The translations under genes and the position numbers were made by a program. 64,000 nt of DNA from positions 33,947-97,946 of the forward strand of contig JAZDMX010000003.1 of the NCBI GenBank assembly GCA_043800555.1, in the 5' to 3' direction. Below the pieces are notes generated by a model. That model saw only the letters and a program-made list of their open reading frames with translations. It had not been told where the DNA came from and did no database searches. The stretch comes from Candidatus Omnitrophota bacterium. GTDB taxonomy: Bacteria > Omnitrophota > Gorgyraeia > Gygaellales > Profunditerraquicolaceae. Below are positions 2,325 through 63,992 of the stretch, piece after piece. The stretch's first letter is position 1, and the number at the start of each line of letters is the position of its first letter.

Positions 2325-3515
2325 ATGGATAAGCGCATTGTCATTACAGGGGTAGGCGTCGTATCTTCCATAGGAATAGGCAAAGAAGATTTTTGGGAAG
2401 CTTTAATCGCCGGGCAATCCGGAATAAGCAAAATTAGTTCTTTTGACACATCCGATTACCCTACCCATTACGGCGGAGAAGTAAAGAACTTTGAGCCTGA
2501 GAACAAAAATATCGGACGGGCCTCGAGCTTAGCCATAGCTTCGGCAAAGCTTGCCGTGAGTGACGCCGGGATCCAGTTAGATAATCTTAGTTCTCAGGAA
2601 ACCGGCGTAGTCATCGGTACCACTATGGGAGAATCTCAAGTTCTTGAAAAATTGAATGACGCTTGGGTAAAACAGGGGATAGAAGCGATAGACCCCAAAT
2701 TAATACCCCAGTATCCCTGCAATGTCCTTTCGTTAAATGTCGGCCAGGAATTAAAACTAGACGGCCCGAATTTTGTCATTCCTAATGCCTGCGCTGCCGG
2801 AAATTATGCCATAGGTTACGCTTATGATCTTATCCGTATGGGTAAGGCTAAAGCAATGTTAGCAGGAGGGTCGGATGCTTTTTCAAGGATAGCCTTCATA
2901 GGCTTTAACCGGCTTCTTGCCGTTGCTTTCGAGAAATGCCGTCCGTTTGATAAAAACAGAAAAGGGATGCTGGTGGCTGAAGGTTCCGGCATGCTCTTTA
3001 TTGAAACGCTGGATGCGGCTTTAAAAAGAGAGGCGAATATTTACGCTGAAATCTTAGGATACGGCTTAAGCTGCGATGCCCATCATATGACCGCGCCTTT
3101 TAGCGAAGGCATCAGCCAAGCCATTGACAAGGCGCTTAAGGCAAGCCAGACCCCCATAGATAAGGTGGATTATTTTAACGCCCATGGGACGGGAACGCCC
3201 GCCAATGACAAGGAAGAATGCCTGGCGATAAAAAAGGTTTTTGGCGATTATTATAAAAAATTACCGGTTAGTTCGATTAAATCCATGCTTGGGCATACCA
3301 TGGGAGCTGCTTCGGCAATCGAAGCGGTCACTTGCGCTTTAGCCGTCAAAAACGACATTATCCCTCCCACGATCAATTTTGAGACTCTGGATGCGGAGTG
3401 CGACATTGATTGCGTGCCGAATGTCGCTCGCAAGGCAAAGGTGGATGTCGCTTTGAACAACGCTTCTGCTTTTGGCGGCAATAACGCGTGTTTGGTGCTT
3501 AGTAAATATCAATAG
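2325..3515 (+). CDS. beta-ketoacyl-ACP synthase, KAS I/II (FabF/FabB) family, catalytically intact
   Basis: 396 aa. Active-site Cys in NACAAGNYAIG, His in NAHGTGTPANDKEE, His in GHTMGAASAIE. Starts 4 nt after the FabZ-like gene. Confidence 0.9.
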   Translation: MDKRIVITGVGVVSSIGIGKEDFWEALIAGQSGISKISSFDTSDYPTHYGGEVKNFEPENKNIGRASSLAIASAKLAVSDAGIQLDNLSSQETGVVIGTTMGESQVLEKLNDAWVKQGIEAIDPKLIPQYPCNVLSLNVGQELKLDGPNFVIPNACAAGNYAIGYAYDLIRMGKAKAMLAGGSDAFSRIAFIGFNRLLAVAFEKCRPFDKNRKGMLVAEGSGMLFIETLDAALKREANIYAEILGYGLSCDAHHMTAPFSEGISQAIDKALKASQTPIDKVDYFNAHGTGTPANDKEECLAIKKVFGDYYKKLPVSSIKSMLGHTMGAASAIEAVTCALAVKNDIIPPTINFETLDAECDIDCVPNVARKAKVDVALNNASAFGGNNACLVLSKYQ

Positions 3516-3518
3516 TGA

Positions 3519-3568
3519 GGGCGGCGCGTCATTTGACTAAACAAGCGCGGGGAAAATGATCGCCGCCC
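3519..3568 (+). terminator. GC-rich hairpin (GGGCGGCG...CGCCGCCC) downstream of KS gene; possible intrinsic terminator with weak U-tract
   Basis: 8-bp perfect GC stem at 3519-3526 / 3561-3568 with a large loop, followed by CTATTTTAT. The U-tract is interrupted, hence low confidence. Confidence 0.35.
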
Positions 3569-3609
3569 CTATTTTATATCCGCAACCTTACAGCCCTGCA
3601 ATTAATCAA

Positions 3610-3637
3610 TTTACCTTTTAATTTTTTATGGTATAAT
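3610..3637 (+). promoter_or_regulatory. putative sigma70 promoter (TTTACC-N16-TGgTATAAT, extended -10) for hydrolase/CrtI-like genes
   Basis: TATAAT at 3632-3637 preceded by TG at 3629-3630, and a -35-like TTTACC at 3610-3615. The first ATG (3647) is only 9 nt downstream, so either the mRNA is leaderless or the true start is the internal Met at 3683. Confidence 0.35.
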
Positions 3638-3646
3638 GCCACTCTT

Positions 3647-4483
3647 ATGGATAATGCAAAACTACGAAAATTTGATTTTCTTATGAAAGGCGATAATGGA
3701 AAAGCGGTTTTGTTGATTCACGGCATTACCGGTACGCCTTCTGAAATGAATTATTTAGGTAAGTCTTTGCACAAGGCTGGTTTTAGCGTGCTTTGCCGGA
3801 CCCTGCCAAAGCATTGCGGCTCCTTGAGGGAGCTAAAGAGCGTTACCTGGCAAGAGATAGCAGATTTTTGCATCAAAGACTTAGAAGGCTTAAAAAAAGA
3901 ATATCGCGATGTTTCTGTGGGCGGGTTATCTATGGGCGCTCTTATGTCGGTCCATCTTGCTTATAAGTACCCTGCTTTAGTCTCTAAGGTTGTTGCTTTG
4001 GCCCCTACCATATTCTATGACGGTTGGGCTGTCCCTAAGCATAAAATATTGATGGATATTTTATGGCACGTGCCTTTCTTGCGCAATAGTATTAATATAA
4101 GAGAGAGCTGGCCTTACGGGTTGAAGAATGAGCTTTTGAGGGCGGGCATAGAAAGGTTTTATCGTAACGCTAAAACAATAGGCAACGACGAAAAGGCGGC
4201 TATTTTCGGCAGTCCGTTTTTTCCAATGAGCTGCCTTTATCAGCACCACCTTTTTACTAAAGTGGTCAAAAAAGAGCTTTCCAGCGTCAAAACTCCTATT
4301 CTTATTATGCATGCCAAGGATGATGATATGACTAGCTCTAAAAACGCGCAATACATGTATAACAGAATCGCCTCTTCGCAGAAAAGCTTAATAATGCTCG
4401 ATGATAGTTATCATATGATAACTATCGATAAGCAAAAACATAAAGTTGCGGAGGAAGTGATTAAGTTCATTAGCGAGCCATAA
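3647..4483 (+). CDS. alpha/beta hydrolase, carboxylesterase Est/YvaK-like
   Basis: AVLLIHGITGTP oxyanion region, GLSMG nucleophile elbow, C-terminal Asp/His region (DDDMTS...SYHMI). An alternative start at 3683 (MKGDNGKAVLLIHG) matches the family N-terminus better. Confidence 0.75.
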   Translation: MDNAKLRKFDFLMKGDNGKAVLLIHGITGTPSEMNYLGKSLHKAGFSVLCRTLPKHCGSLRELKSVTWQEIADFCIKDLEGLKKEYRDVSVGGLSMGALMSVHLAYKYPALVSKVVALAPTIFYDGWAVPKHKILMDILWHVPFLRNSINIRESWPYGLKNELLRAGIERFYRNAKTIGNDEKAAIFGSPFFPMSCLYQHHLFTKVVKKELSSVKTPILIMHAKDDDMTSSKNAQYMYNRIASSQKSLIMLDDSYHMITIDKQKHKVAEEVIKFISEP

Positions 4484-37918: not shown

Positions 37919-38737
37919 ATGAAGAAAAAAATTGGCATAGTTGGCTGCGGAGCGATAGGATCATCTTTAGCAAAGGCGATTGTAGCTAGCTTTGCTCAAG
38001 AGGCGAAGCTTTGCTCGCTATATGATTTGAATGGCGGGCTTTCCATGCGTTTATCAAGAGAGGTTTCCGGAAGCCCCGGGTTGTCGATGGAAAATCCGGG
38101 GCAGTTGATTAAGAAGTCAGACCTGGTAATTGAAGCGGCTTCGGCAAAAGTATCCTGGGGCATAGCTAAGGCGGTTTTATCTAGCGGTAAAGATGTTATG
38201 ATTATGAGCGTAGGGGGAGTATCAAACCGCCTCAAGGAGTTAACCTCTTTGGCCAGGAAGAATAACGCGCGGGTATATATTCCCAGCGGCGCTATTGCCG
38301 GCATAGATGCGCTAAAGGCCGCGGGTGTCGGGAGGATAAATAAGGTAGTCCTTACTACTACCAAAAATCCGCTTTCATTCAAAGGAGTCAAATACCTGGA
38401 AGATAAAAGAATAGATTTAGCCGGGATTAAGAAGGAAACTGTGTTATTTTCCGGGAAAGCGGCTGAGGCGGTTAAATATTTCCCCCAGAATATCAATGTT
38501 GCCGCGGTCTTAAGTTTAGCGGGGATAGGCGAAAACAAAACGCAGGTGAGAATAATTGTTTCTCCCAAGGTTGCCAAGAATACGCATGAAATCAGGATAG
38601 AGTCTCCCGCGGCCAGTATTTTTACCCGCACGGAAAATACCTTGCATCCGGATAATCCGAAGACTTCTTTTCTGGCGGTTTTATCGGCGGTAGCCATGTT
38701 GAGAAATATCCTGGAACCGGTCAGAATCGGGACCTGA
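37919..38737 (+). CDS. nadX: L-aspartate dehydrogenase (NadX/DUF108 family)
   Basis: KIGIVGCGAIGSSLAKAI Rossmann N-terminus. About 270 aa and a C-terminal domain typical of aspartate dehydrogenase. Confidence 0.7.
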   Translation: MKKKIGIVGCGAIGSSLAKAIVASFAQEAKLCSLYDLNGGLSMRLSREVSGSPGLSMENPGQLIKKSDLVIEAASAKVSWGIAKAVLSSGKDVMIMSVGGVSNRLKELTSLARKNNARVYIPSGAIAGIDALKAAGVGRINKVVLTTTKNPLSFKGVKYLEDKRIDLAGIKKETVLFSGKAAEAVKYFPQNINVAAVLSLAGIGENKTQVRIIVSPKVAKNTHEIRIESPAASIFTRTENTLHPDNPKTSFLAVLSAVAMLRNILEPVRIGT

Positions 38738-38795
38738 TCCGGGTTTTGTGCGGGATTATAAACTACATTAACACAGAAAGGGGGTGAATACAAAT

Positions 38796-39035
38796 ATGGC
38801 AGAGAAAATAGCAAAGCTGGGAGTAATGAGGCAGAAGGGGTTCCTCTATTACATTGACTAGCAAGGCGATGTCTCCTGCGCCAAGATGGCAAGTGGCGCT
38901 AAAAAGGGAGGCAGCCCGAAAAAGGTAGCTAAGTGCTGCATCAAGAGAAAAGAAGGTTACCTTTATTTCTTGGATAAGCAAGGCGATGTCTCCTGCGCCA
39001 AGATGAAAAGAGGCGGTAAGAAGAGAAAGAAATAA
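38796..39035 (+). CDS. small Lys-rich protein built from a duplicated module (G[FY]LY[YF][IL]DKQGDVSCAKM), interrupted by an in-frame TAG at 38859-38861 (sub-ORFs 38796-38861 and 38886-39035)
   Basis: SD AAAGGGGG before ATG 38796. Contains a 27-nt perfect direct repeat CAAGGCGATGTCTCCTGCGCCAAGATG (38862-38888 and 38977-39003). The first copy reads ...TTGACTAGCAAGG where the second reads ...TTGGATAAGCAAGG. Ends in KRGGKKRKK. Not in the ORF track because the pieces are under 60 aa. Confidence 0.3.
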
Positions 39036-39043
39036 GAAAATGA

Positions 39044-39109
39044 GGCAATGGGGACGTTTCTACTTTCCTAATAATGGAATTCTAGAAAAGTAGAAACGTC
39101 CCCATTGCC
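39044..39109. repeat. palindromic hairpin repeat, copy A (intergenic): GGCAATGGGGACGTTTCTACTTT-loop19-AAAGTAGAAACGTCCCCATTGCC
   Basis: Perfect inverted repeat arms 39044-39066 / 39087-39109. Same core as the copies at 46.4, 57.3, 61.0, 61.7 and 63.3 kb. Followed by a CCCCATTTTTCC mini-motif. Confidence 0.85.
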
Positions 39110-39176
39110 TCCGTCCCCATTTTTCCTGATTTTTTCAGGGATTTACAGGGGCGCCCCCTTTTGTTATAATAATCCT

Positions 39177-46366: not shown

Positions 46367-46438
46367 GCCTTCAATAACGGTTATTTGATCTATTCTTTGC
46401 CCGAAATCCGCTATTTTAACGGGGCAGTTCCGGAAAAC

Positions 46439-46544
46439 GGGGATGGGAAAAATGGGGACGTTTCTACTTTTCAAGAAATAAGCTCGGAAAAGTAGAAACG
46501 TCCCCAATTTTTCCCCCCATTTTTCCCATCCCCATTTTTCCCTG
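46439..46544. repeat. palindromic hairpin repeat, copy B (intergenic), with extended/tandemly reiterated CCCCATTTTTCC outer arms
   Basis: Core GGGGACGTTTCTACTTTT 46454-46471, 16-nt loop, AAAAGTAGAAACGTCCCC 46488-46505. Left flank GGGGATGGGAAAAATGGGG is mirrored on the right by CCCCAATTTTTCC-CCCCATTTTTCC-CATCCCCATTTTTCCC. Confidence 0.85.
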
Positions 46545-57343: not shown

Positions 57344-57413
57344 GGGAAAATGGGGACGTTTCTACTTTTCCGGCAGCTAAACTCAGGAAAAGTAGAAACG
57401 TCCCCATTTTCAT
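57344..57413. repeat. palindromic hairpin repeat, copy C (intergenic, between pilin block and tRNA-Ala)
   Basis: GAAAATGGGGACGTTTCTACTTTT 57344-57369, 18-nt loop, AAAAGTAGAAACGTCCCCATTTTC 57388-57413. Perfect 24-nt arms. Confidence 0.85.
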
Positions 57414-57429
57414 GATATAATAAAAATAC

Positions 57430-57502
57430 GGGCCTGTAGCTCAGCTGGGAGAGCGCCTCGTTCGCAACGAGGAGGTCAGCGGTTCGATCCCGCTCAGGTC
57501 CA
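57430..57502 (+). tRNA. tRNA-Ala (anticodon CGC)
   Basis: 73-nt cloverleaf. Acceptor GGGCCUG/CAGGUCC with the G3:U70 Ala identity pair, D-arm GCTCAGCTGGGAGAGC, anticodon stem CCTCG/CGAGG with loop TTCGCAA, T-arm GGTTCGATCC. No encoded CCA. Confidence 0.9.
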
Positions 57503-58833: not shown

Positions 58834-60470
58834 CAATAAAAAGGGATTGTCGCCATAGGCTGCTCCGGAAGCCGGGTAGCTTCCTGTTGCTTCGGCATTG
58901 TTTTGCCCTGTTTCGCAGGCGCCTTGTATTTTTGGCAACTACTGGTTTCTTAGTTTCTGTTTTGAGTTTTGGCGTTTGCCATTCGTTATATGCCGGAGGC
59001 ATAAAAGAGCCTTGCGTTGCCGGGACATTTTATCCCGAAGACCCCGGAGAGCTTTCTAAGATGATTGACGCATTCTTGGAAGAAGCAAATCCTGAAACGG
59101 GGCCGGTTGGCCGGGTTTTCGCCTTAATTTCTCCTCATGCCGGTTACGGCTATTCGGGTAAAGTCGCGGGGTTCGGCTACAAGCTTATCAAGGCCAAAGA
59201 GTATAAAACGGTGGTAATTTTAGGTACGAGCCATCACTATGCCTTTAGCGGAATTTCGGTTTATCCCGGCGGCGTATTCAAAACTCCGCTTGGAGGAATT
59301 CCGGTAGATGATGAATTTACCCAAAAATTGCTCAATAAAGGCCCGGCTGTAACATTCGTCCCGGAGGCCTTTCAAGAAGAGCATAGCGTTGAAGTGCAGC
59401 TGCCGTTTTTACAAAAGACGCTGGATAATTTCAAGATTGTCCCGGTAGTCATTGGCGACGTTTCTTTATCTACCTGCCAGAAGTTTGCCGCTTTGCTTAA
59501 GGAATCAATTAATACGCGTAATGATGTTTTGTTGGTTGTTTCTACCGATATGTACCACGGATATGATTATGAGGAGGCGGATAAAACCGATAACCTTACC
59601 TTGGCCGCTATAAAGAACATGGACGCGCAAGCCCTTTATTACGGGATTCGTGATGAGAAAATGCAGCTTTGCGGAGGTTTCGGGGTTGTAACCGCCCTTA
59701 TTTTAGCCAAAAGCATGGGCTATGATAAAGCGGTATTATTAAAACATACAAACTCTGCGGAAGTTACCAATAATATGAAAAAAGGTATCTGGACCGTAGG
59801 TTATTCAAGCTGGGCTATTGGCGCTTCTATGGGATCCAGCGTCAATGGCGGGCAGAGTCGAACCAGTGGCGCTTCTTTAGGGCCCAGCGCCAATCCGGGA
59901 GGAGAAGCCATGTTTAATAAAGGTCAGAGGAAGCGGTTGCTTGAGATTGCGCGCGCTGCTATAGAGGCATATTTAAAGAATGGCAAGGTTTTAGAGATTA
60001 CCGAGACGGACCCTGCTTTGGCAAAGACTACAGGAGCTTTTGTTACCCTTAATGAACACGGGGATTTGCGCGGTTGTATAGGAAGCCTCCTGGGGACAGA
60101 ACCGTTGTATTTAACCGTGCGGGATATGGCGGTTGAGGCTGCTACGGGCGATTCCCGCTTTAACCCGGTAAAGCTGCCGGATTTAAAGAATATTGAGATT
60201 GAAGTATCCGTTTTATCTCCTATGCAGAAAATCGACGATCCTGGCCTGATTAAGCTTGGGGTCCACGGTGTTTTAGTGCGGCAAGGCTACAAGAGCGGGG
60301 TATTCCTTCCCCAAGTAGCTACGGAAACAGGATGGTCAAAAGATGATTTTATGTCGAATTTGTGCGTCCATAAAGCGGGCCTTGCCCCCGATGCCTGGAA
60401 AGATAGATCTACCGAAATTTATATTTTTACGGCGGAAGTGTTTTCCGAGAAAGAGATGAGCGGTGGTTAA
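58830..60470 (+). CDS. fused AmmeMemoRadiSam system protein B (MEMO1 family) + protein A (AMMECR1 domain), with N-terminal Arg-rich/hydrophobic extension
   Basis: ATGA overlap with the radical SAM gene. N-terminal half has MEMO1 motifs (VAGTFYPEDP...ISPHAGYGYSG...ILGTSHH...DMYHGYD). C-terminal about 190 aa is AMMECR1 (GAFVTLNEHGDLRGCIGS...GVLVRQGYKSGVFLPQVA). The first about 50 aa (RRRLVFLATTGFLVSVLSFGVCHSLYA) look like a signal peptide or membrane anchor. Confidence 0.85.
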   Translation: MTIKRDCRHRLLRKPGSFLLLRHCFALFRRRLVFLATTGFLVSVLSFGVCHSLYAGGIKEPCVAGTFYPEDPGELSKMIDAFLEEANPETGPVGRVFALISPHAGYGYSGKVAGFGYKLIKAKEYKTVVILGTSHHYAFSGISVYPGGVFKTPLGGIPVDDEFTQKLLNKGPAVTFVPEAFQEEHSVEVQLPFLQKTLDNFKIVPVVIGDVSLSTCQKFAALLKESINTRNDVLLVVSTDMYHGYDYEEADKTDNLTLAAIKNMDAQALYYGIRDEKMQLCGGFGVVTALILAKSMGYDKAVLLKHTNSAEVTNNMKKGIWTVGYSSWAIGASMGSSVNGGQSRTSGASLGPSANPGGEAMFNKGQRKRLLEIARAAIEAYLKNGKVLEITETDPALAKTTGAFVTLNEHGDLRGCIGSLLGTEPLYLTVRDMAVEAATGDSRFNPVKLPDLKNIEIEVSVLSPMQKIDDPGLIKLGVHGVLVRQGYKSGVFLPQVATETGWSKDDFMSNLCVHKAGLAPDAWKDRSTEIYIFTAEVFSEKEMSGG

Positions 60471-61179
60471 AATAGTTGCGAGCAGCTTTATTTTGGGGCT
60501 TGCGCTCGGCAGTGGGCCGTGCTTAGCTAGTTGCGGCCCGCTGTTTTTGACTTATATAGCCGGTTCCGGCAAGGGAGTTTTAAAAAGCCTGGAGTCTTAC
60601 TTTTTATTTTCAGCGTCGCGGATATTCGTTTACTTGATTTTAGGCTTATTATGCTTTTTTTTCGGCAGGTTAATCTTTGTGAGATTAGGGGATATTTTCA
60701 AGTTTATTTTGTTTGGCGCGGGCCTCTTTGTTGTTTCCCTTGGCATACTTATGGTTTTGGGTAAGGGAGTAAATTCGGCCCATTGCTCTTTTTTGCGGGA
60801 ACGTATTCTTGAAAAAGACAGTAAAGGCGTAGTCATCCTTGGGTTATTTGCTGGGCTATTGCCCTGCGCGCCTCTAATAGCTATGTTCACCTTTACGGGG
60901 TTAACCGCTAAAAGCGCCTTCGAGAATTTATTGTATTCTTTTGCATTCGGTTTAGGGACAGCTATTTCTCCGCTTATAGTTTTAGCCGGGCTGGCAGGCT
61001 TACTCCCCGCGCTCTTCAGGAAAAAGGGGGACGTTTCAAAAAAGGGGGACGTTTCTACTTTTCCCAATACTAGCTATAGAAAAGTAGAAACGTCCCCCTT
61101 TTTCTTGAGGCTGTTCCATATTATTTGCGGTTTGATTATGGTATTCTTAGGGATTCAGCTAATTCGGAGAATATTTTAA
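60463..61179 (+). CDS. integral membrane protein with paired TM cysteine motifs (GSGPCLASCGP ... LLPCAPL; CcdA/DsbD-like thiol-disulfide or metal transporter family?) carrying an in-frame repeat insertion
   Basis: 6-7 predicted TM helices. Residues about 186-214 (RKKGDVSKKGDVSTFPNTSYRKVETSPFF) are encoded by repeat copy D. The hydrophobic reading frame resumes after it (LRLFHIICGLIMVFLGIQLI). Confidence 0.5.
   Translation: MVKIVASSFILGLALGSGPCLASCGPLFLTYIAGSGKGVLKSLESYFLFSASRIFVYLILGLLCFFFGRLIFVRLGDIFKFILFGAGLFVVSLGILMVLGKGVNSAHCSFLRERILEKDSKGVVILGLFAGLLPCAPLIAMFTFTGLTAKSAFENLLYSFAFGLGTAISPLIVLAGLAGLLPALFRKKGDVSKKGDVSTFPNTSYRKVETSPFFLRLFHIICGLIMVFLGIQLIRRIF
61021..61103. repeat. palindromic hairpin repeat, copy D (inside CDS, in-frame), with an extra 5' partial arm duplication
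   Basis: AAAAAGGGGGACGTTTC (partial) then AAAAAAGGGGGACGTTTCTACTTTT, 17-nt loop, AAAAGTAGAAACGTCCCCCTTTTTC. Belongs to the five-G / AAAAAG-flank subtype. Confidence 0.85.
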
Positions 61180-62001
61180 ATGAATAAATTTTTCTGTAAG
61201 GATTCGGATATGCAGGAGGACAAAATCAACATTTCAAATAAGGAGGATGTCCACCATATAAAGAATGTCCTTAGGCTAAAGCAGGGCGGAAAGGTTGAAG
61301 TCTCTGATGAATCGGGCAATGTTTATGCCTGCGAAATCTTCCGGATAGACGATAACGTCCATTTGGTTGTTAAGAATAAAATTTGCTCTACCGGTATAGA
61401 CCGGGGGATAGAATTAACTGTGGCAGTCGCTATCCCCAAGAAGGCCAAGATAGACGATATCATAGATAAGCTGGTCCAATTGGGGGTGCGCAGGGTTATC
61501 CCTTTGAAAACGGAACGCGTGATAGTGAAACTGGATAAGCAAAAGGAAGCCGACCGTTTTCTGCGCTGGAAGAAGATTGCGCTTTGCGCGGCTAAGCAGT
61601 GCAAAAGGAGCGATTTAGCTGTTATTGAGCCGGTTAGGAGCTTTAAGGACGTTGTCGCGGATTCAAGCAGGTTTGATTTAAAGCTTATTCCGTATTTGGG
61701 AGGGGAACGGAGAACTCTTAGGGATGTTTTAGCAAAGGGGGACGTTTCTACTTTTCTTGAGCCTGGTGCCAGAAAAGTAGAAACGACCCCCTTTGCTTTG
61801 AAAAGTAGAAACGTCCCCCTTTTTTCTAAAGTAATGGTTTTAATCGGGCCGGAAGGCGATTTTTCCGAAGAAGAGGTTCAGTTGGCTTTATCCGCGGGGT
61901 TTATCCCGGTTACGCTGGGAAGTTTAGTTTTACGCGTGGATACCGCTGCTATTGCCGTAGCCGGTTTCATCAGGCTGTTTTTAGGTCAGGAGCGGTTTTA
62001 A
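61180..62001 (+). CDS. rsmE: 16S rRNA (uracil1498-N3)-methyltransferase RsmE, carrying an about 30-aa in-frame repeat insertion
   Basis: PUA-like N-terminus and SPOUT C-terminal domain (VLIGPEGDFSEEEV...LGSLVLRVDTAAIAVAG). The segment KGDVSTFLEPGARKVETTPFALKSRNVPLFS is encoded by repeat copy E, between conserved blocks. Confidence 0.8.
   Translation: MNKFFCKDSDMQEDKINISNKEDVHHIKNVLRLKQGGKVEVSDESGNVYACEIFRIDDNVHLVVKNKICSTGIDRGIELTVAVAIPKKAKIDDIIDKLVQLGVRRVIPLKTERVIVKLDKQKEADRFLRWKKIALCAAKQCKRSDLAVIEPVRSFKDVVADSSRFDLKLIPYLGGERRTLRDVLAKGDVSTFLEPGARKVETTPFALKSRNVPLFSKVMVLIGPEGDFSEEEVQLALSAGFIPVTLGSLVLRVDTAAIAVAGFIRLFLGQERF
61731..61826. repeat. palindromic hairpin repeat, copy E (inside rsmE, in-frame): one left arm plus two right arms
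   Basis: GCAAAGGGGGACGTTTCTACTTTT, loop, AAAAGTAGAAACGACCCCCTTTGC (one mismatch, flank-complementary), then a second right arm AAAAGTAGAAACGTCCCCCTTTTTT. Confidence 0.85.
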
Positions 62002-62056: not shown

Positions 62057-63301
62057 ATGAAGATAAAATTTTATACCCTTGGCTGCAAAGTAAACCAATA
62101 TGATACCCAGAGTATCCGGGAGCGTTTTCTGGCGCATGGGTTCAAGGAGGCGCGCGGGCCAGGCAAAAGCGATTGTTATCTTATAAATACTTGCACCGTT
62201 ACGGCTATGGCCGACCAGAAATCCCGCAGGCTGATCCGGCATTGTATCAGCGAAAACCCGCAGGCCAAAGTAATAGTAACCGGTTGCATGGTTAAGAATG
62301 ATTCCGGAGAGTTAGCCGGAATTCGCGGCGTGAGCCTGATTATCAGTAAAAGTTTTTTTAGCGAAGGGATAAGCGATTTTTCTTCGCATACCCGGGCGTT
62401 TTTAAAGATTCAGGATGGTTGCGATAATTTTTGCTCCTATTGCAAGGTGCCTTTGGCGCGCGGCAGGTCAAGAAGCAGGCCCTTAACGGATGTAATTAAA
62501 GAAGCCCGGGCCCTAGCCGAAAAAGGCTTCAAGGAAATAGTCTTAACCGGTATATGCCTGGGTTCTTACGGCAAGGATCTCGGAAAAGGCATAGGGCTGG
62601 CAATGGTTATCGAAGAGATGGAGAAGATAGAAGGGTTATCGCGTATCCGTTTGAGTTCTATCGAGGCCGGCGATATTACCGAGCCATTGATCGATAAGAT
62701 GTCTAAATCCAAGAAGCTTTGCCGGCATTTGCATATTCCTCTCCAAAGCGGGGATGATGATATCTTAAAGAAGATGCGGCGTAAGTATTCGCGTAAATTT
62801 TATCTTGATCTTATTAAGAGGATAAAAGCCAAGATCCCGCAAATAGCCATTACTACTGATTGCCTTGTCGGCTTCCCGGGGGAGAAAGAAAGAAATTTCA
62901 GGAATACCCTGGATTTAATCAATAGTATCCTGCCTTTAAGGGCGCACATTTTTCCTTATTCTCCCAGAAAGGGAACAAGCGCTTATCTAAAGGCGGTTCA
63001 TCTTGGTTTTTCATCGCCCGAGCTTGTTAGAAGGCGTGTCGCTGTCCTTAAATCCGCGGCCAGCCTGTGTTCCGATAAGTATAAAAAGCGCTTCTTAGGC
63101 CGCACAATGCTTGTTCTTTTTGAAGGTAAATCCAGGGCAATGAGGGGGTGCTGGGAGGGTTATACTGATAATTATATTAAGGTTATTTTCAGGTCCCGGC
63201 GTAATTTAAAGAACAGGCTGGTATATGTCAAGCTTAAGGGTATTTTTGGCGATGCCGTATTGGCTTCCCGGAAAAAGGGGGACGTTTCTACTTTTTTCTA
63301 G
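62057..63301 (+). CDS. mtaB: tRNA (t6A37) methylthiotransferase MtaB (MiaB/RimO radical-SAM methylthiotransferase family)
   Basis: MTTase N-domain YTLGCKVNQYDT...INTCTVT, radical SAM CxxxCxxC in DGCDNFCSYCKVP, C-terminal TRAM domain. The last 9 codons (KKGDVSTFF) and the TAG stop come from repeat copy F. Confidence 0.85.
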   Translation: MKIKFYTLGCKVNQYDTQSIRERFLAHGFKEARGPGKSDCYLINTCTVTAMADQKSRRLIRHCISENPQAKVIVTGCMVKNDSGELAGIRGVSLIISKSFFSEGISDFSSHTRAFLKIQDGCDNFCSYCKVPLARGRSRSRPLTDVIKEARALAEKGFKEIVLTGICLGSYGKDLGKGIGLAMVIEEMEKIEGLSRIRLSSIEAGDITEPLIDKMSKSKKLCRHLHIPLQSGDDDILKKMRRKYSRKFYLDLIKRIKAKIPQIAITTDCLVGFPGEKERNFRNTLDLINSILPLRAHIFPYSPRKGTSAYLKAVHLGFSSPELVRRRVAVLKSAASLCSDKYKKRFLGRTMLVLFEGKSRAMRGCWEGYTDNYIKVIFRSRRNLKNRLVYVKLKGIFGDAVLASRKKGDVSTFF

Positions 63302-63338
63302 GCTTAGCGCCGGAAAAGTAGAAACGTCCCCCTTTTTC
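63271..63338. repeat. palindromic hairpin repeat, copy F (forms the 3' end and stop codon of mtaB)
   Basis: GAAAAAGGGGGACGTTTCTACTTTT 63271-63295, 18-nt loop containing TAG, AAAAGTAGAAACGTCCCCCTTTTTC 63314-63338. Confidence 0.85.
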
Positions 63339-63348
63339 TATTTTCTCC

Positions 63349-63377
63349 TTGACAAAATCGGCTTGGGATGGTATAAG
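63349..63377 (+). promoter_or_regulatory. sigma70-type promoter TTGACA-N17-TGgTATAAG (extended -10) for the pilA-like gene
   Basis: Consensus -35 at 63349-63354, 17-nt spacer, TG at 63369-63370, TATAAG at 63372-63377. Located immediately after repeat F and about 150 nt upstream of the pilin start. Confidence 0.55.
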
Positions 63378-63529
63378 TAAACAGTAAATTTGAAGGGGGC
63401 TTTGCGCAAAAGTTTTAAATAACCTCTTAAAAAGTAACCCGGAAGTTATAATTTTACAATAACCAGAAGGGGTTAAGCAGAAAACGCGCGGGAAGCCAAT
63501 CTTACCTTAGAAAGGGGGATTTTAAAGAC

Positions 63530-63931
63530 ATGAATAGAAAAGGTTTTACGCTTGTTGAAATTATGATCGTTGTGGCGATTATCGCATTATTGGCAGCTAT
63601 TGCTATACCTAACTTATTAAGCGCCAGGATGACCGCTAATACGGCAGCAGCTAAGGCCAACATCCGTAGTTTATCTACAGCCTGCGAAACGTATTCAACC
63701 GCAAACAGCGGCGCGTATCCGACCACGGTAGCTGAATTAACTACTTTTATCAGTTCCGCAGCTTCTTATTGCGCTGACGCAGCCGGCACAGCTGCTACGG
63801 TTCAGGGTTACCAATACCATTGTACTTTGGGGACAGGCAGCTATACGTTAGTGGCTAATCCGGTTACCGTAGGCACAACCGGCACTACGACATATACCGC
63901 TACTACAGGAGGAGTGCTTACGCCATTATAA
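63530..63931 (+). CDS. pilA: type IVa major pilin PilA-like (NRKG|FTLVEIMIVVAIIALLAAIAIP)
   Basis: Canonical class III signal peptide with Gly-1/Phe+1/Glu+5. 133 aa, Thr/Gly/Ala-rich C-terminal region with a Cys pair. SD AAGGGGG upstream. Confidence 0.85.
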   Translation: MNRKGFTLVEIMIVVAIIALLAAIAIPNLLSARMTANTAAAKANIRSLSTACETYSTANSGAYPTTVAELTTFISSAASYCADAAGTAATVQGYQYHCTLGTGSYTLVANPVTVGTTGTTTYTATTGGVLTPL

Positions 63932-63957
63932 GAGCGCTTCTTGTGAAGAGTTAGAAA

Positions 63958-63992
63958 AGAGGAGAGGAGAAATTTCTCTCCTCTTTTTTTTA
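63958..63992 (+). terminator. rho-independent terminator after pilA
   Basis: About 11-bp stem AGAGGAGAGGA / TTTCTCTCCTCT (one G-U pair) with a GAAAT loop, followed by TTTTTTTT. Confidence 0.7.

Follow-up and report, generated by a model that had tools for sequence, protein, structure and literature searches.

Rickettsia palindromic elements (RPEs), which Ogata and colleagues are said to have described in 2000 as selfish repeats tolerated as in-frame peptides in housekeeping genes, are 100 to 150 nt long and conserved along their whole length, and we know of no transposase linked to them. RPEs are also mentioned in PMC3733652. Repetitive extragenic palindromic (REP) sequences form REPINs when two units face each other in inverted orientation around a less conserved spacer, and these are found flanking RAYT genes (Bertels & Rainey 2011, PMC3116915). 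TIRtrons are TIRYT Y1 transposases flanked by terminal inverted repeats (TIRs) that start with GGGGWSAS, accompanied by dispersed TIR dimers (Di Nocera et al. 2013, PMC3733652; PMC6006769), and a subclass 2.1 with a C-terminal helix-turn-helix (HTH) domain has been defined (Quentin et al. 2018, PMC6006769). In many cases, the stop codon of a flanking open reading frame (ORF) is a TAG from the end of a REP; ~10% of intragenic REPs lie at ORF ends, intragenic REP dimers encode 20 to 30 amino acids, and the spacers of dimers can vary (PMC3733652). Here, we analyze a 64-kb stretch of DNA from a Candidatus Omnitrophota bacterium (hereafter the window), which contains six hairpin-forming repeats, copies A to F, the last of which overlaps the 3′ end of the tRNA modification gene mtaB. 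Copy F is probably a member of a lineage-restricted family of non-autonomous miniature palindromic repeats of the REP-doublet (REPIN) or TIR-dimer kind, whose insertion removed the mtaB stop codon, so that a TAG in the loop of the hairpin is now used instead.

The identity of MtaB is well supported since the protein matches the TIGR01579 profile with 407.9 bits (cutoff 357), and both Radical_SAM and UPF0004 domains are present. The same 414-residue protein, 100% identical, is found in a metagenome-assembled genome (MAG) labeled "Candidatus Omnitrophota" by NCBI. As can be seen from the translation of the ORF and the coordinates of the inverted repeat, the initial annotation was right that mtaB runs into a hairpin repeat and stops at a TAG in its loop. 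The protein ends with ...GIFGDAVLAS-RKKGDVSTFF*, and the underlying inverted repeat has 25-nt arms that are 100% complementary and separated by 18 nt. Its predicted RNA fold has an energy of -52.9 kcal/mol (z = -8.06), a stability reached by 0 of 200 shuffled sequences. Of the junction Arg codon (CGG, 63269-63271), a single base, the last, belongs to the repeat; the next eight to nine codons lie within the left arm, and the last Phe codon sits at the border between arm and loop. The tail and its stop exist only because the hairpin is present. The initial annotation had credited the repeat with nine C-terminal codons and the stop; the tail codons do come from the left arm, but ten residues are appended, and the stop belongs to the variable loop rather than to the conserved repeat. 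The left arm is open in all three reading frames, while the right arm has a TAG in only one.

We compared this site at the DNA level with three syntenic relatives (L003/L004, L005, and L006), whose MtaB proteins are 74 to 76% identical to that of the window and which share the gene order radical-SAM / Memo-AMMECR1 / DsbD_2 / RsmE / MtaB / pilin. The repeat core is absent from all three, in ~37 kb of their DNA that was examined. Their MtaB proteins end with ...VLAS or ...ILAA, followed by a TAA, a spacer of ~36 nt, and the same pilin promoter as in the window, the -35 and -10 elements of which are invariant across the orthologous loci. The spacers between mtaB and the pilin gene in these loci show no significant structure (z from 0.1 to -1.7), whereas the six copies in the window fold with energies of -45 to -66 kcal/mol (z from -6.6 to -10.3). 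We extended the comparison to 120 listed homologues, 97 of which, orthologues of the Omnitrophota type, have a complete last strand and were used. Among these, the tail past the residue equivalent to S404 is 0 to 24 amino acids long and is missing altogether in 21, which end at the equivalent of ...VLAS, while a tail resembling KKGDVSTFF occurs in none of the 97. The counterexample that the initial annotation had envisaged, an orthologue with such a tail, therefore does not occur among them. This comparison of aligned loci shows that copy F was inserted at the mtaB stop codon or beside it and is not ancestral sequence. An ancestral tail and a native terminator at the end of mtaB, which we also considered, are both ruled out by the comparison with orthologues.

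How does the insertion affect MtaB? The initial annotation had the TRAM domain ending at ...VLAS. Pfam calls no TRAM domain in MtaB, but a C-terminal beta-domain is visible in the AlphaFold model (mean pLDDT 89.4, from an alignment of 65 sequences), and its final strand spans residues 400 to 404. In the same model, the appended residues form a coil after this last strand, with pLDDT below 50 for residues 409 to 414. All the residues up to S404 are kept and ten are added; since no native residue is lost and the tail is an add-on, the native protein is complete. What was lost at the mtaB end is, on the same comparison, only the stop codon and ~8 to 26 nt of spacer. The idea that the element replaced the native 3′ end and stop therefore needs rewording: the stop was displaced, but the coding sequence was extended rather than replaced. 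The 10-residue tail is probably neutral. Methylthiolation yielding ms2t6A is dispensable in model bacteria, and the label "essential-class" given to mtaB in the initial annotation is an overstatement.

Copy F belongs to a family of repeats. Matches to the 19-nt core number 13 in the window, where 0.02 would be expected, and these are arranged as six hairpins, the inverted pairs being found at six of six loci (Table 1). The repeat unit is ~25 nt long and reads GAAAAW-GGGGACGTTTCTAC-TTTTC. Arms are 96 to 100% identical among copies, while the six loops, 12 to 18 nt long, are each specific to their copy and share no similarity, so conservation is confined to the arms of elements that measure 66 to 107 nt overall. 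Three of the copies are intergenic, two of them (B and C) a short way past a stop codon; the other three are within ORFs or overlap them. Additional single or partial arms are seen at copies A, B, D, and E; in copy B, stuttered partial units on both sides (46432-46453 and 46507-46538; GGGGATGGGAAAAAT / ATTTTTCCCCCCATTTTTCCCATCCCC) lengthen the hairpin arms to 41 nt. A single base divides the family into two, since the arms of copies A, B, and C read ...AATGGGGACG, with a T before GGGGACG, and those of copies D, E, and F read ...AAGGGGGACG, with a G at this position; in each case the opposite arm carries the matching base. The three copies of the G type lie within 2.3 kb in three adjacent genes, a clustering that suggests that they may have arisen by local spread.

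Table 1. Position of the repeats and of neighboring features in the window
Feature	Position	Strand	Remarks
Copy A	39042..39111	.	Intergenic, between aspartate dehydrogenase and glycosyltransferase genes; extra CGTCCCCATTTTTCC after right arm
Copy B	46432..46538	.	Intergenic, after TPR gene, before type IV pilus cluster
Copy C	57346..57411	.	Intergenic, 6 nt past stop of last pilin-like gene, 18 nt before tRNA-Ala
Copy D	61016..61108	.	Partial left unit and full hairpin; in frame in DsbD_2-family gene (ORF 60463-61179)
Copy E	61731..61822	.	Left arm, loop, and two right arms; in frame in rsmE (ORF 61180-62001)
Copy F	63271..63338	.	Overlaps mtaB 3′ end
Copy F, left arm (GAAAAAGGGGGACGTTTCTACTTTT)	63271..63295	.	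From inverted-repeat search
Copy F, loop/spacer (TTCTAGGCTTAGCGCCGG)	63296..63313	.	Copy-specific; holds TAG stop (63299-63301)
Copy F, right arm	63314..63338	.	CCCCC TTTTT end and downstream TATTTTCT, putative terminator-like stem base and T-run
mtaB ORF, with repeat-derived tail and TAG stop	62057..63301	+	414 amino acids; TIGR01579 profile
Codon S404, final native residue of MtaB	63266..63268	+	Orthologue stops directly after here; end of strand 400-404
Ten appended codons, R and KKGDVSTFF	63269..63298	+	R, junction codon; predicted coil
Promoter of pilin-like gene	63349..63377	+	TTGACA (63349-63354), 17-nt spacer, TATAAG (63372-63377) with TG extension
Pilin-like gene, N_methyl prepilin motif	63530..63931	+	Gene order shared with relatives
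Ordinary intrinsic terminator (AAAAGAGGAGAG...CTCTCCTCTTTTTTT)	63955-63990		After pilin-like gene
tRNA-Ala(CGC)	57430-57502		18 nt after copy C

Copies D and E lie in the two genes immediately upstream of mtaB, and both are read through in frame. The protein that hosts copy D has 238 residues against 215 in relatives, and the insertion, which encodes RKKGDVSKKGDVSTF-PNTSY-RKVETSPFF, precedes its last membrane helix. Copy E adds ~30 residues to RsmE (273 against 243 to 257 in relatives), in the form of the peptide GDVSTF-LEPGA-RKVETTPFA-L-KSRNVPLF, which falls within a linker whose length varies among relatives. The 273-residue product is annotated by NCBI as a normal RsmE (MFH0855048.1). When the arms alone are removed, all three proteins return to the length of their orthologues (404, ~250, and ~214 residues for MtaB, RsmE, and the DsbD_2-family protein, respectively).

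A scan of Joint Genome Institute (JGI) metagenomes with the 18-nt arm returned 19 contigs, five of which carry true hairpins (L007, L011, L013 with two, L015, and L021) and span 38 to 65% G+C. In L013, a gene (1016/1100-1699) encodes a protein matching PF01797 (Y1_Tnp) with 27.2 bits (cutoff 23), in which both the HUH motif (HTHFHLL) and the tyrosine motif (RYIELNPV) can be recognized. This gene is bordered on both sides by hairpins with the arm found in the window, aaaaGGGGACGTTTCTACtttt, at 975-1010 and 1686-1721, and its TAG stop codon lies within the arm of the downstream hairpin, which parallels the mtaB case. In L013 and L007, the same arms have essentially no spacer. Homologues of the L013 protein, ~50% identical, occur in Pseudomonadota, Deltaproteobacteria, and other MAGs. 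At four further loci (L030 to L033), each Y1 gene is flanked by inverted motifs beginning with GGGGACGTT, ~175 nt upstream and 40 to 65 nt downstream. The repeat finder identified TIRs of 34 to 73 nt with 73 to 79% complementarity in L030, L032, and L033, while in L031 the GGGGACGTTTCC motif occurs in inverted orientation on either side of the gene but no TIR was called. The start of these TIRs, GGGGACGT, fits the published GGGGWSAS consensus at six of eight positions, and L030 contains another TIR pair at a distance of 10 kb from its transposase. It is the arm at both ends of the L013 Y1 gene, together with the GGGGACGTT inverted repeats at its homologues, that points to a repeat of the REPIN or TIR-dimer type.

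Outside the transposase loci, hairpins lie just past gene ends in L015 (7579-7623), L021 (4836-4895), and L011 (843-913), which have 65, 64, and 38% G+C, respectively. L015 is assignable to Candidatus Aminicenantes through a protein that falls in the same cluster at 90% identity, and the arm is therefore common to distant lineages. The layout in L011, a partial unit followed by a hairpin, matches that of copy D. L011 also has a second, different hairpin that starts with GGGGACG (1265-1294; GGGGACGGTTCTCT..AGAGAACCGTCCCC), between two genes and beside lexA.

Several observations weigh against placing the repeat among REPINs and TIR dimers. First, there is no transposase in the window, whether ~34 proteins are searched with Pfam or the L013 protein is used in tblastn, and the link to a transposase therefore rests on other organisms. 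Second, the only NCBIfam match of the L013 protein is NF047646 ("REP-associated tyrosine transposase"), with 50.6 bits against an equivalog cutoff of 80, and the protein has no PDB match by sequence. Third, the unit is a single arm without the classic REP palindrome and unpaired GTAG/CGTC tag; its self-complementarity is weak (GAAAAG/CTTTTC), and CTAC and GACG are buried in the long stem. Fourth, three of the six copies reach into coding sequence, an unusual share for repeats called "extragenic." Finally, we know of no RAYT for which transposition has been demonstrated in vivo. The C-terminal HTH domain was not detected in the L013 protein either.

Searches in wider collections returned little. 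Among GTDB representative genomes, a set that excludes the window's own genome, the two-arm pattern was met only as two single hairpins, in a Lachnospiraceae and a Clostridia contig, which look like chance. Viral contigs contain four single-arm matches without partners, also taken as chance, and Rfam gave only sub-threshold microRNA-hairpin noise. In the literature, the motif was met only in unrelated primer sequences, and nothing relevant on palindromic repeats in Omnitrophota was found. For the 43-residue peptide encoded by the repeat, a word-index search found no candidate, and HMMER over 1.84 billion representatives returned only two unrelated low-complexity proteins. Neither a relation among the loops nor their origin as relics of transposase-proximal TIR sequence reached significance. 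Readings as CRISPR, attC, operator sites, or uptake signals were set aside, as the units are 25-nt inverted pairs, inserted in genes and linked to Y1 transposases.

If copy F is a mobile repeat of the REPIN or TIR-dimer kind, a simple series of events could account for the locus. Its mobility would depend on a Y1 (HUH) transposase of the RAYT/TIRYT type, present in a single copy and presumably encoded elsewhere in the genome, that acts on the repeat as a single-stranded hairpin. The copy that landed at the mtaB stop removed this codon, as the comparison with relatives shows. Ribosomes now read on through the left arm, which is translated as KKGDVSTFF, and end at the first in-frame stop, the TAG in the spacer. 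The resulting tail is predicted to hang off the last beta-strand as a disordered and presumably neutral appendage. The mtaB transcript, in turn, gains a very stable hairpin with a G+C-rich base and a T-run after it, at 10 nt from the conserved pilin promoter, and this hairpin would probably terminate or attenuate read-through from mtaB. Since the left arm would be covered by a ribosome that sits on the loop TAG, termination would depend on the distance between translation and transcription and would be strongest if translation lags behind. Hairpins D and E, which are fully translated, would be expected to stay unfolded.

The consequences for transcription bear on the first alternative, that copy F is a domesticated regulatory hairpin kept by selection at the mtaB end, either as a bidirectional terminator/insulator shielding the pilin promoter or as a translation-coupled attenuator with its stop in the loop. 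The stem of copy F has a GGGGG/CCCCC base, followed by TTTTTCTATTTTCT / UUUUUCUAUUUUCU as a T-run, and a gap of 10 nt separates the repeat from the TTGACA of the -35 element. The initial annotation gave this distance as 11 nt, and it is indeed the 11th nucleotide at which the -35 starts. A consensus promoter scan missed this promoter because position 6 of its -10 element is a G. Judged by its sequence, it is plausible that the copy F hairpin acts as a terminator or insulator, and selection for such a role is consistent with 1) the lack of structure at the mtaB-pilin site in relatives, 2) the location of copies A, B, and C at operon borders, with B and C bracketing the type IV pilus cluster, and 3) the related hairpins just past gene ends in other contigs. 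However, the 25-bp stem and 18-nt loop do not fit the usual geometry of terminators, and a terminator scan made no call here. The ordinary terminator after the pilin-like gene indicates that this genome also uses conventional short ones. Moreover, the relatives manage without a terminator at this site although they have the same promoter, and copies D and E are located within co-transcribed genes, in which termination would do harm, so that the positions of the copies look opportunistic. We consider it unlikely that selection for regulation explains copy F.

The loops suggest a second alternative, in which the mobile unit would be a single arm of ~25 nt, and pairs would be built around 12 to 18 nt of host DNA by a second insertion or an inverted template switch, leaving the copy F loop and its TAG as native spacer. 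This would agree with the contrast between near-identical arms and six loops without similarity, with the return of three proteins to orthologue length upon arms-only removal, and with the extra single or partial arms at copies A, B, D, and E and in L011. It would also agree with the colinear, if weak, similarity of the copy F loop to the native spacers of L006 and L005 (shuffle p = 0.0105 and 0.0325, respectively), the match to L006 extending to 13 of 18 positions in an alignment read by eye. By its sequence, then, the loop of copy F may be native spacer DNA. The similarity is not significant for copies D and E, however, nor for copy F when compared to L003. Besides, the variable spacers of REP dimers have already been described without such a model (PMC3733652). 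In L013 and L007, moreover, there is essentially no spacer between the arms, and no mechanism of this kind is known. We give this account little credence as an explanation of copy F. A wider version of it, which we consider quite unlikely too, takes in the presence of the same arm sequence in unrelated lineages, namely Omnitrophota, the contig attributable to Aminicenantes, and contigs of 38 to 65% G+C. If true, a mobile ~25-nt arm assembled into pairs around host DNA would point to a RAYT/TIRYT system that spreads horizontally and builds hairpins in a previously undescribed way, in contrast to the REPIN-RAYT systems known to date, which are inherited vertically.

A motif resembling the DNA uptake signals of Neisseria and Haemophilus (DUS/USS), which often pair into terminators, might be thought of given the many type IV pilus genes of this genome, with a pilus/secretin cluster in the window and a conserved short unit that often occurs as inverted pairs after genes and sometimes inside ORFs. 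This is very improbable since there are only 13 units in 64 kb, almost all of them paired, the copies lengthen genes as insertions rather than substitutions, and the unit flanks a Y1 transposase gene. An artefact of assembly or sequencing, conceivable because the source is a MAG, is scarcely credible given six copies with different loops and flanks, two of which keep long ORFs in frame, related hairpins in independent assemblies, and NCBI annotation of the extended proteins.

The surroundings of the repeats show some further features. The promoter and the ~150-nt leader of the pilin-like gene (window 63349-63529) are strongly conserved when compared to L003 to L006, and a small hairpin in this region (63498-63521) pairs CUUACCUU with the Shine-Dalgarno AAGGGGGA; there is no Rfam match for it, and the consensus fold is weak (-9.7 kcal/mol). 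In L003, a phage-type integrase and an HTH_17 gene (3003-4106) lie upstream of the radical-SAM gene, at the position matching that of tRNA-Ala(CGC) in the window, so synteny breaks at a likely integration site. A greedy ORF call (at least 70 amino acids) over window 1-64000 placed 63 of 64 chosen ORFs on the + strand, and the single minus-strand ORF (37996-38892), which overlaps the aspartate dehydrogenase gene, looks spurious.

Taken together, these findings offer a clean syntenic "empty-site" comparison, in which a selfish palindrome rewrites the end of one gene and adds peptides to three neighboring housekeeping genes, none of which is destroyed. A repeat of the REPIN or TIR-dimer type, as we read copy F, is previously undescribed in Omnitrophota, and the REP/REPIN-TIRYT repeats would thereby be extended to this uncultured phylum. 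The supply of a stop codon and of in-frame peptides is already known from other bacteria, and the current understanding is not overturned, as REPs with both effects were catalogued in 2013 (PMC3733652). There is also a practical caution for annotation, since tails or internal peptides such as KKGDVSTF or KVETSPFF in MAGs of this kind are repeat-derived. Should the hairpin terminate transcription, the repeat would have created a new operon boundary 10 nt before a conserved pilin promoter.

How does the repeat compare with the systems that it resembles? With intrinsic terminators, copy F shares a stem with a G+C-rich base, a T-run after it, symmetrical A-run/T-run flanks of the bidirectional type, and a position just past a gene, but its 25-bp stem and 18-nt loop are far larger, a stop codon lies inside the structure, and the sequence is repeated. 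RPEs have in common with it that a palindromic selfish repeat is tolerated as an in-frame peptide insertion; the element in the window differs in its length of 66 to 107 nt and in the conservation of its arms only, and has no sequence similarity to RPEs. The likeness to TIRtrons extends to Y1 genes with long TIRs that begin with a GGGG motif (GGGGWSAS as published, GGGGACGT here) and to TIR copies dispersed as dimers or clusters in moderate abundance, six dimers and partial units in the window. In contrast, the fit to the consensus is six of eight, the HTH domain of subclass 2.1 is not detected in L013, and the published examples come from other phyla.

REPINs likewise consist of two inverted conserved units around a less conserved spacer and form a long hairpin in single-stranded DNA or RNA, and here, too, doublets far outnumber singlets and the same sequence flanks a Y1/HUH gene (in L013). 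The units in the window differ in not being palindromic REPs with a 5′ GTAG tag, in spacers that are only 12 to 18 nt long and wholly unrelated among copies, and in the half of the copies that touch ORFs. They differ also in the host phylum, Omnitrophota, in a transposase (L013) that scores below the RAYT equivalog cutoff, and in a transposase link known from other organisms. The GTAG/CGTC REPs of Opitutus terrae and Rickettsia conorii (PMC3733652) take their TAG from the GTAG tag and have a different sequence, whereas the mtaB stop lies in the spacer loop. Like the repeat in the window, however, these REPs overlap ORF ends and supply stop codons, add 20 to 30 amino acids as in-frame dimers, and count RNA-modification genes among their hosts.

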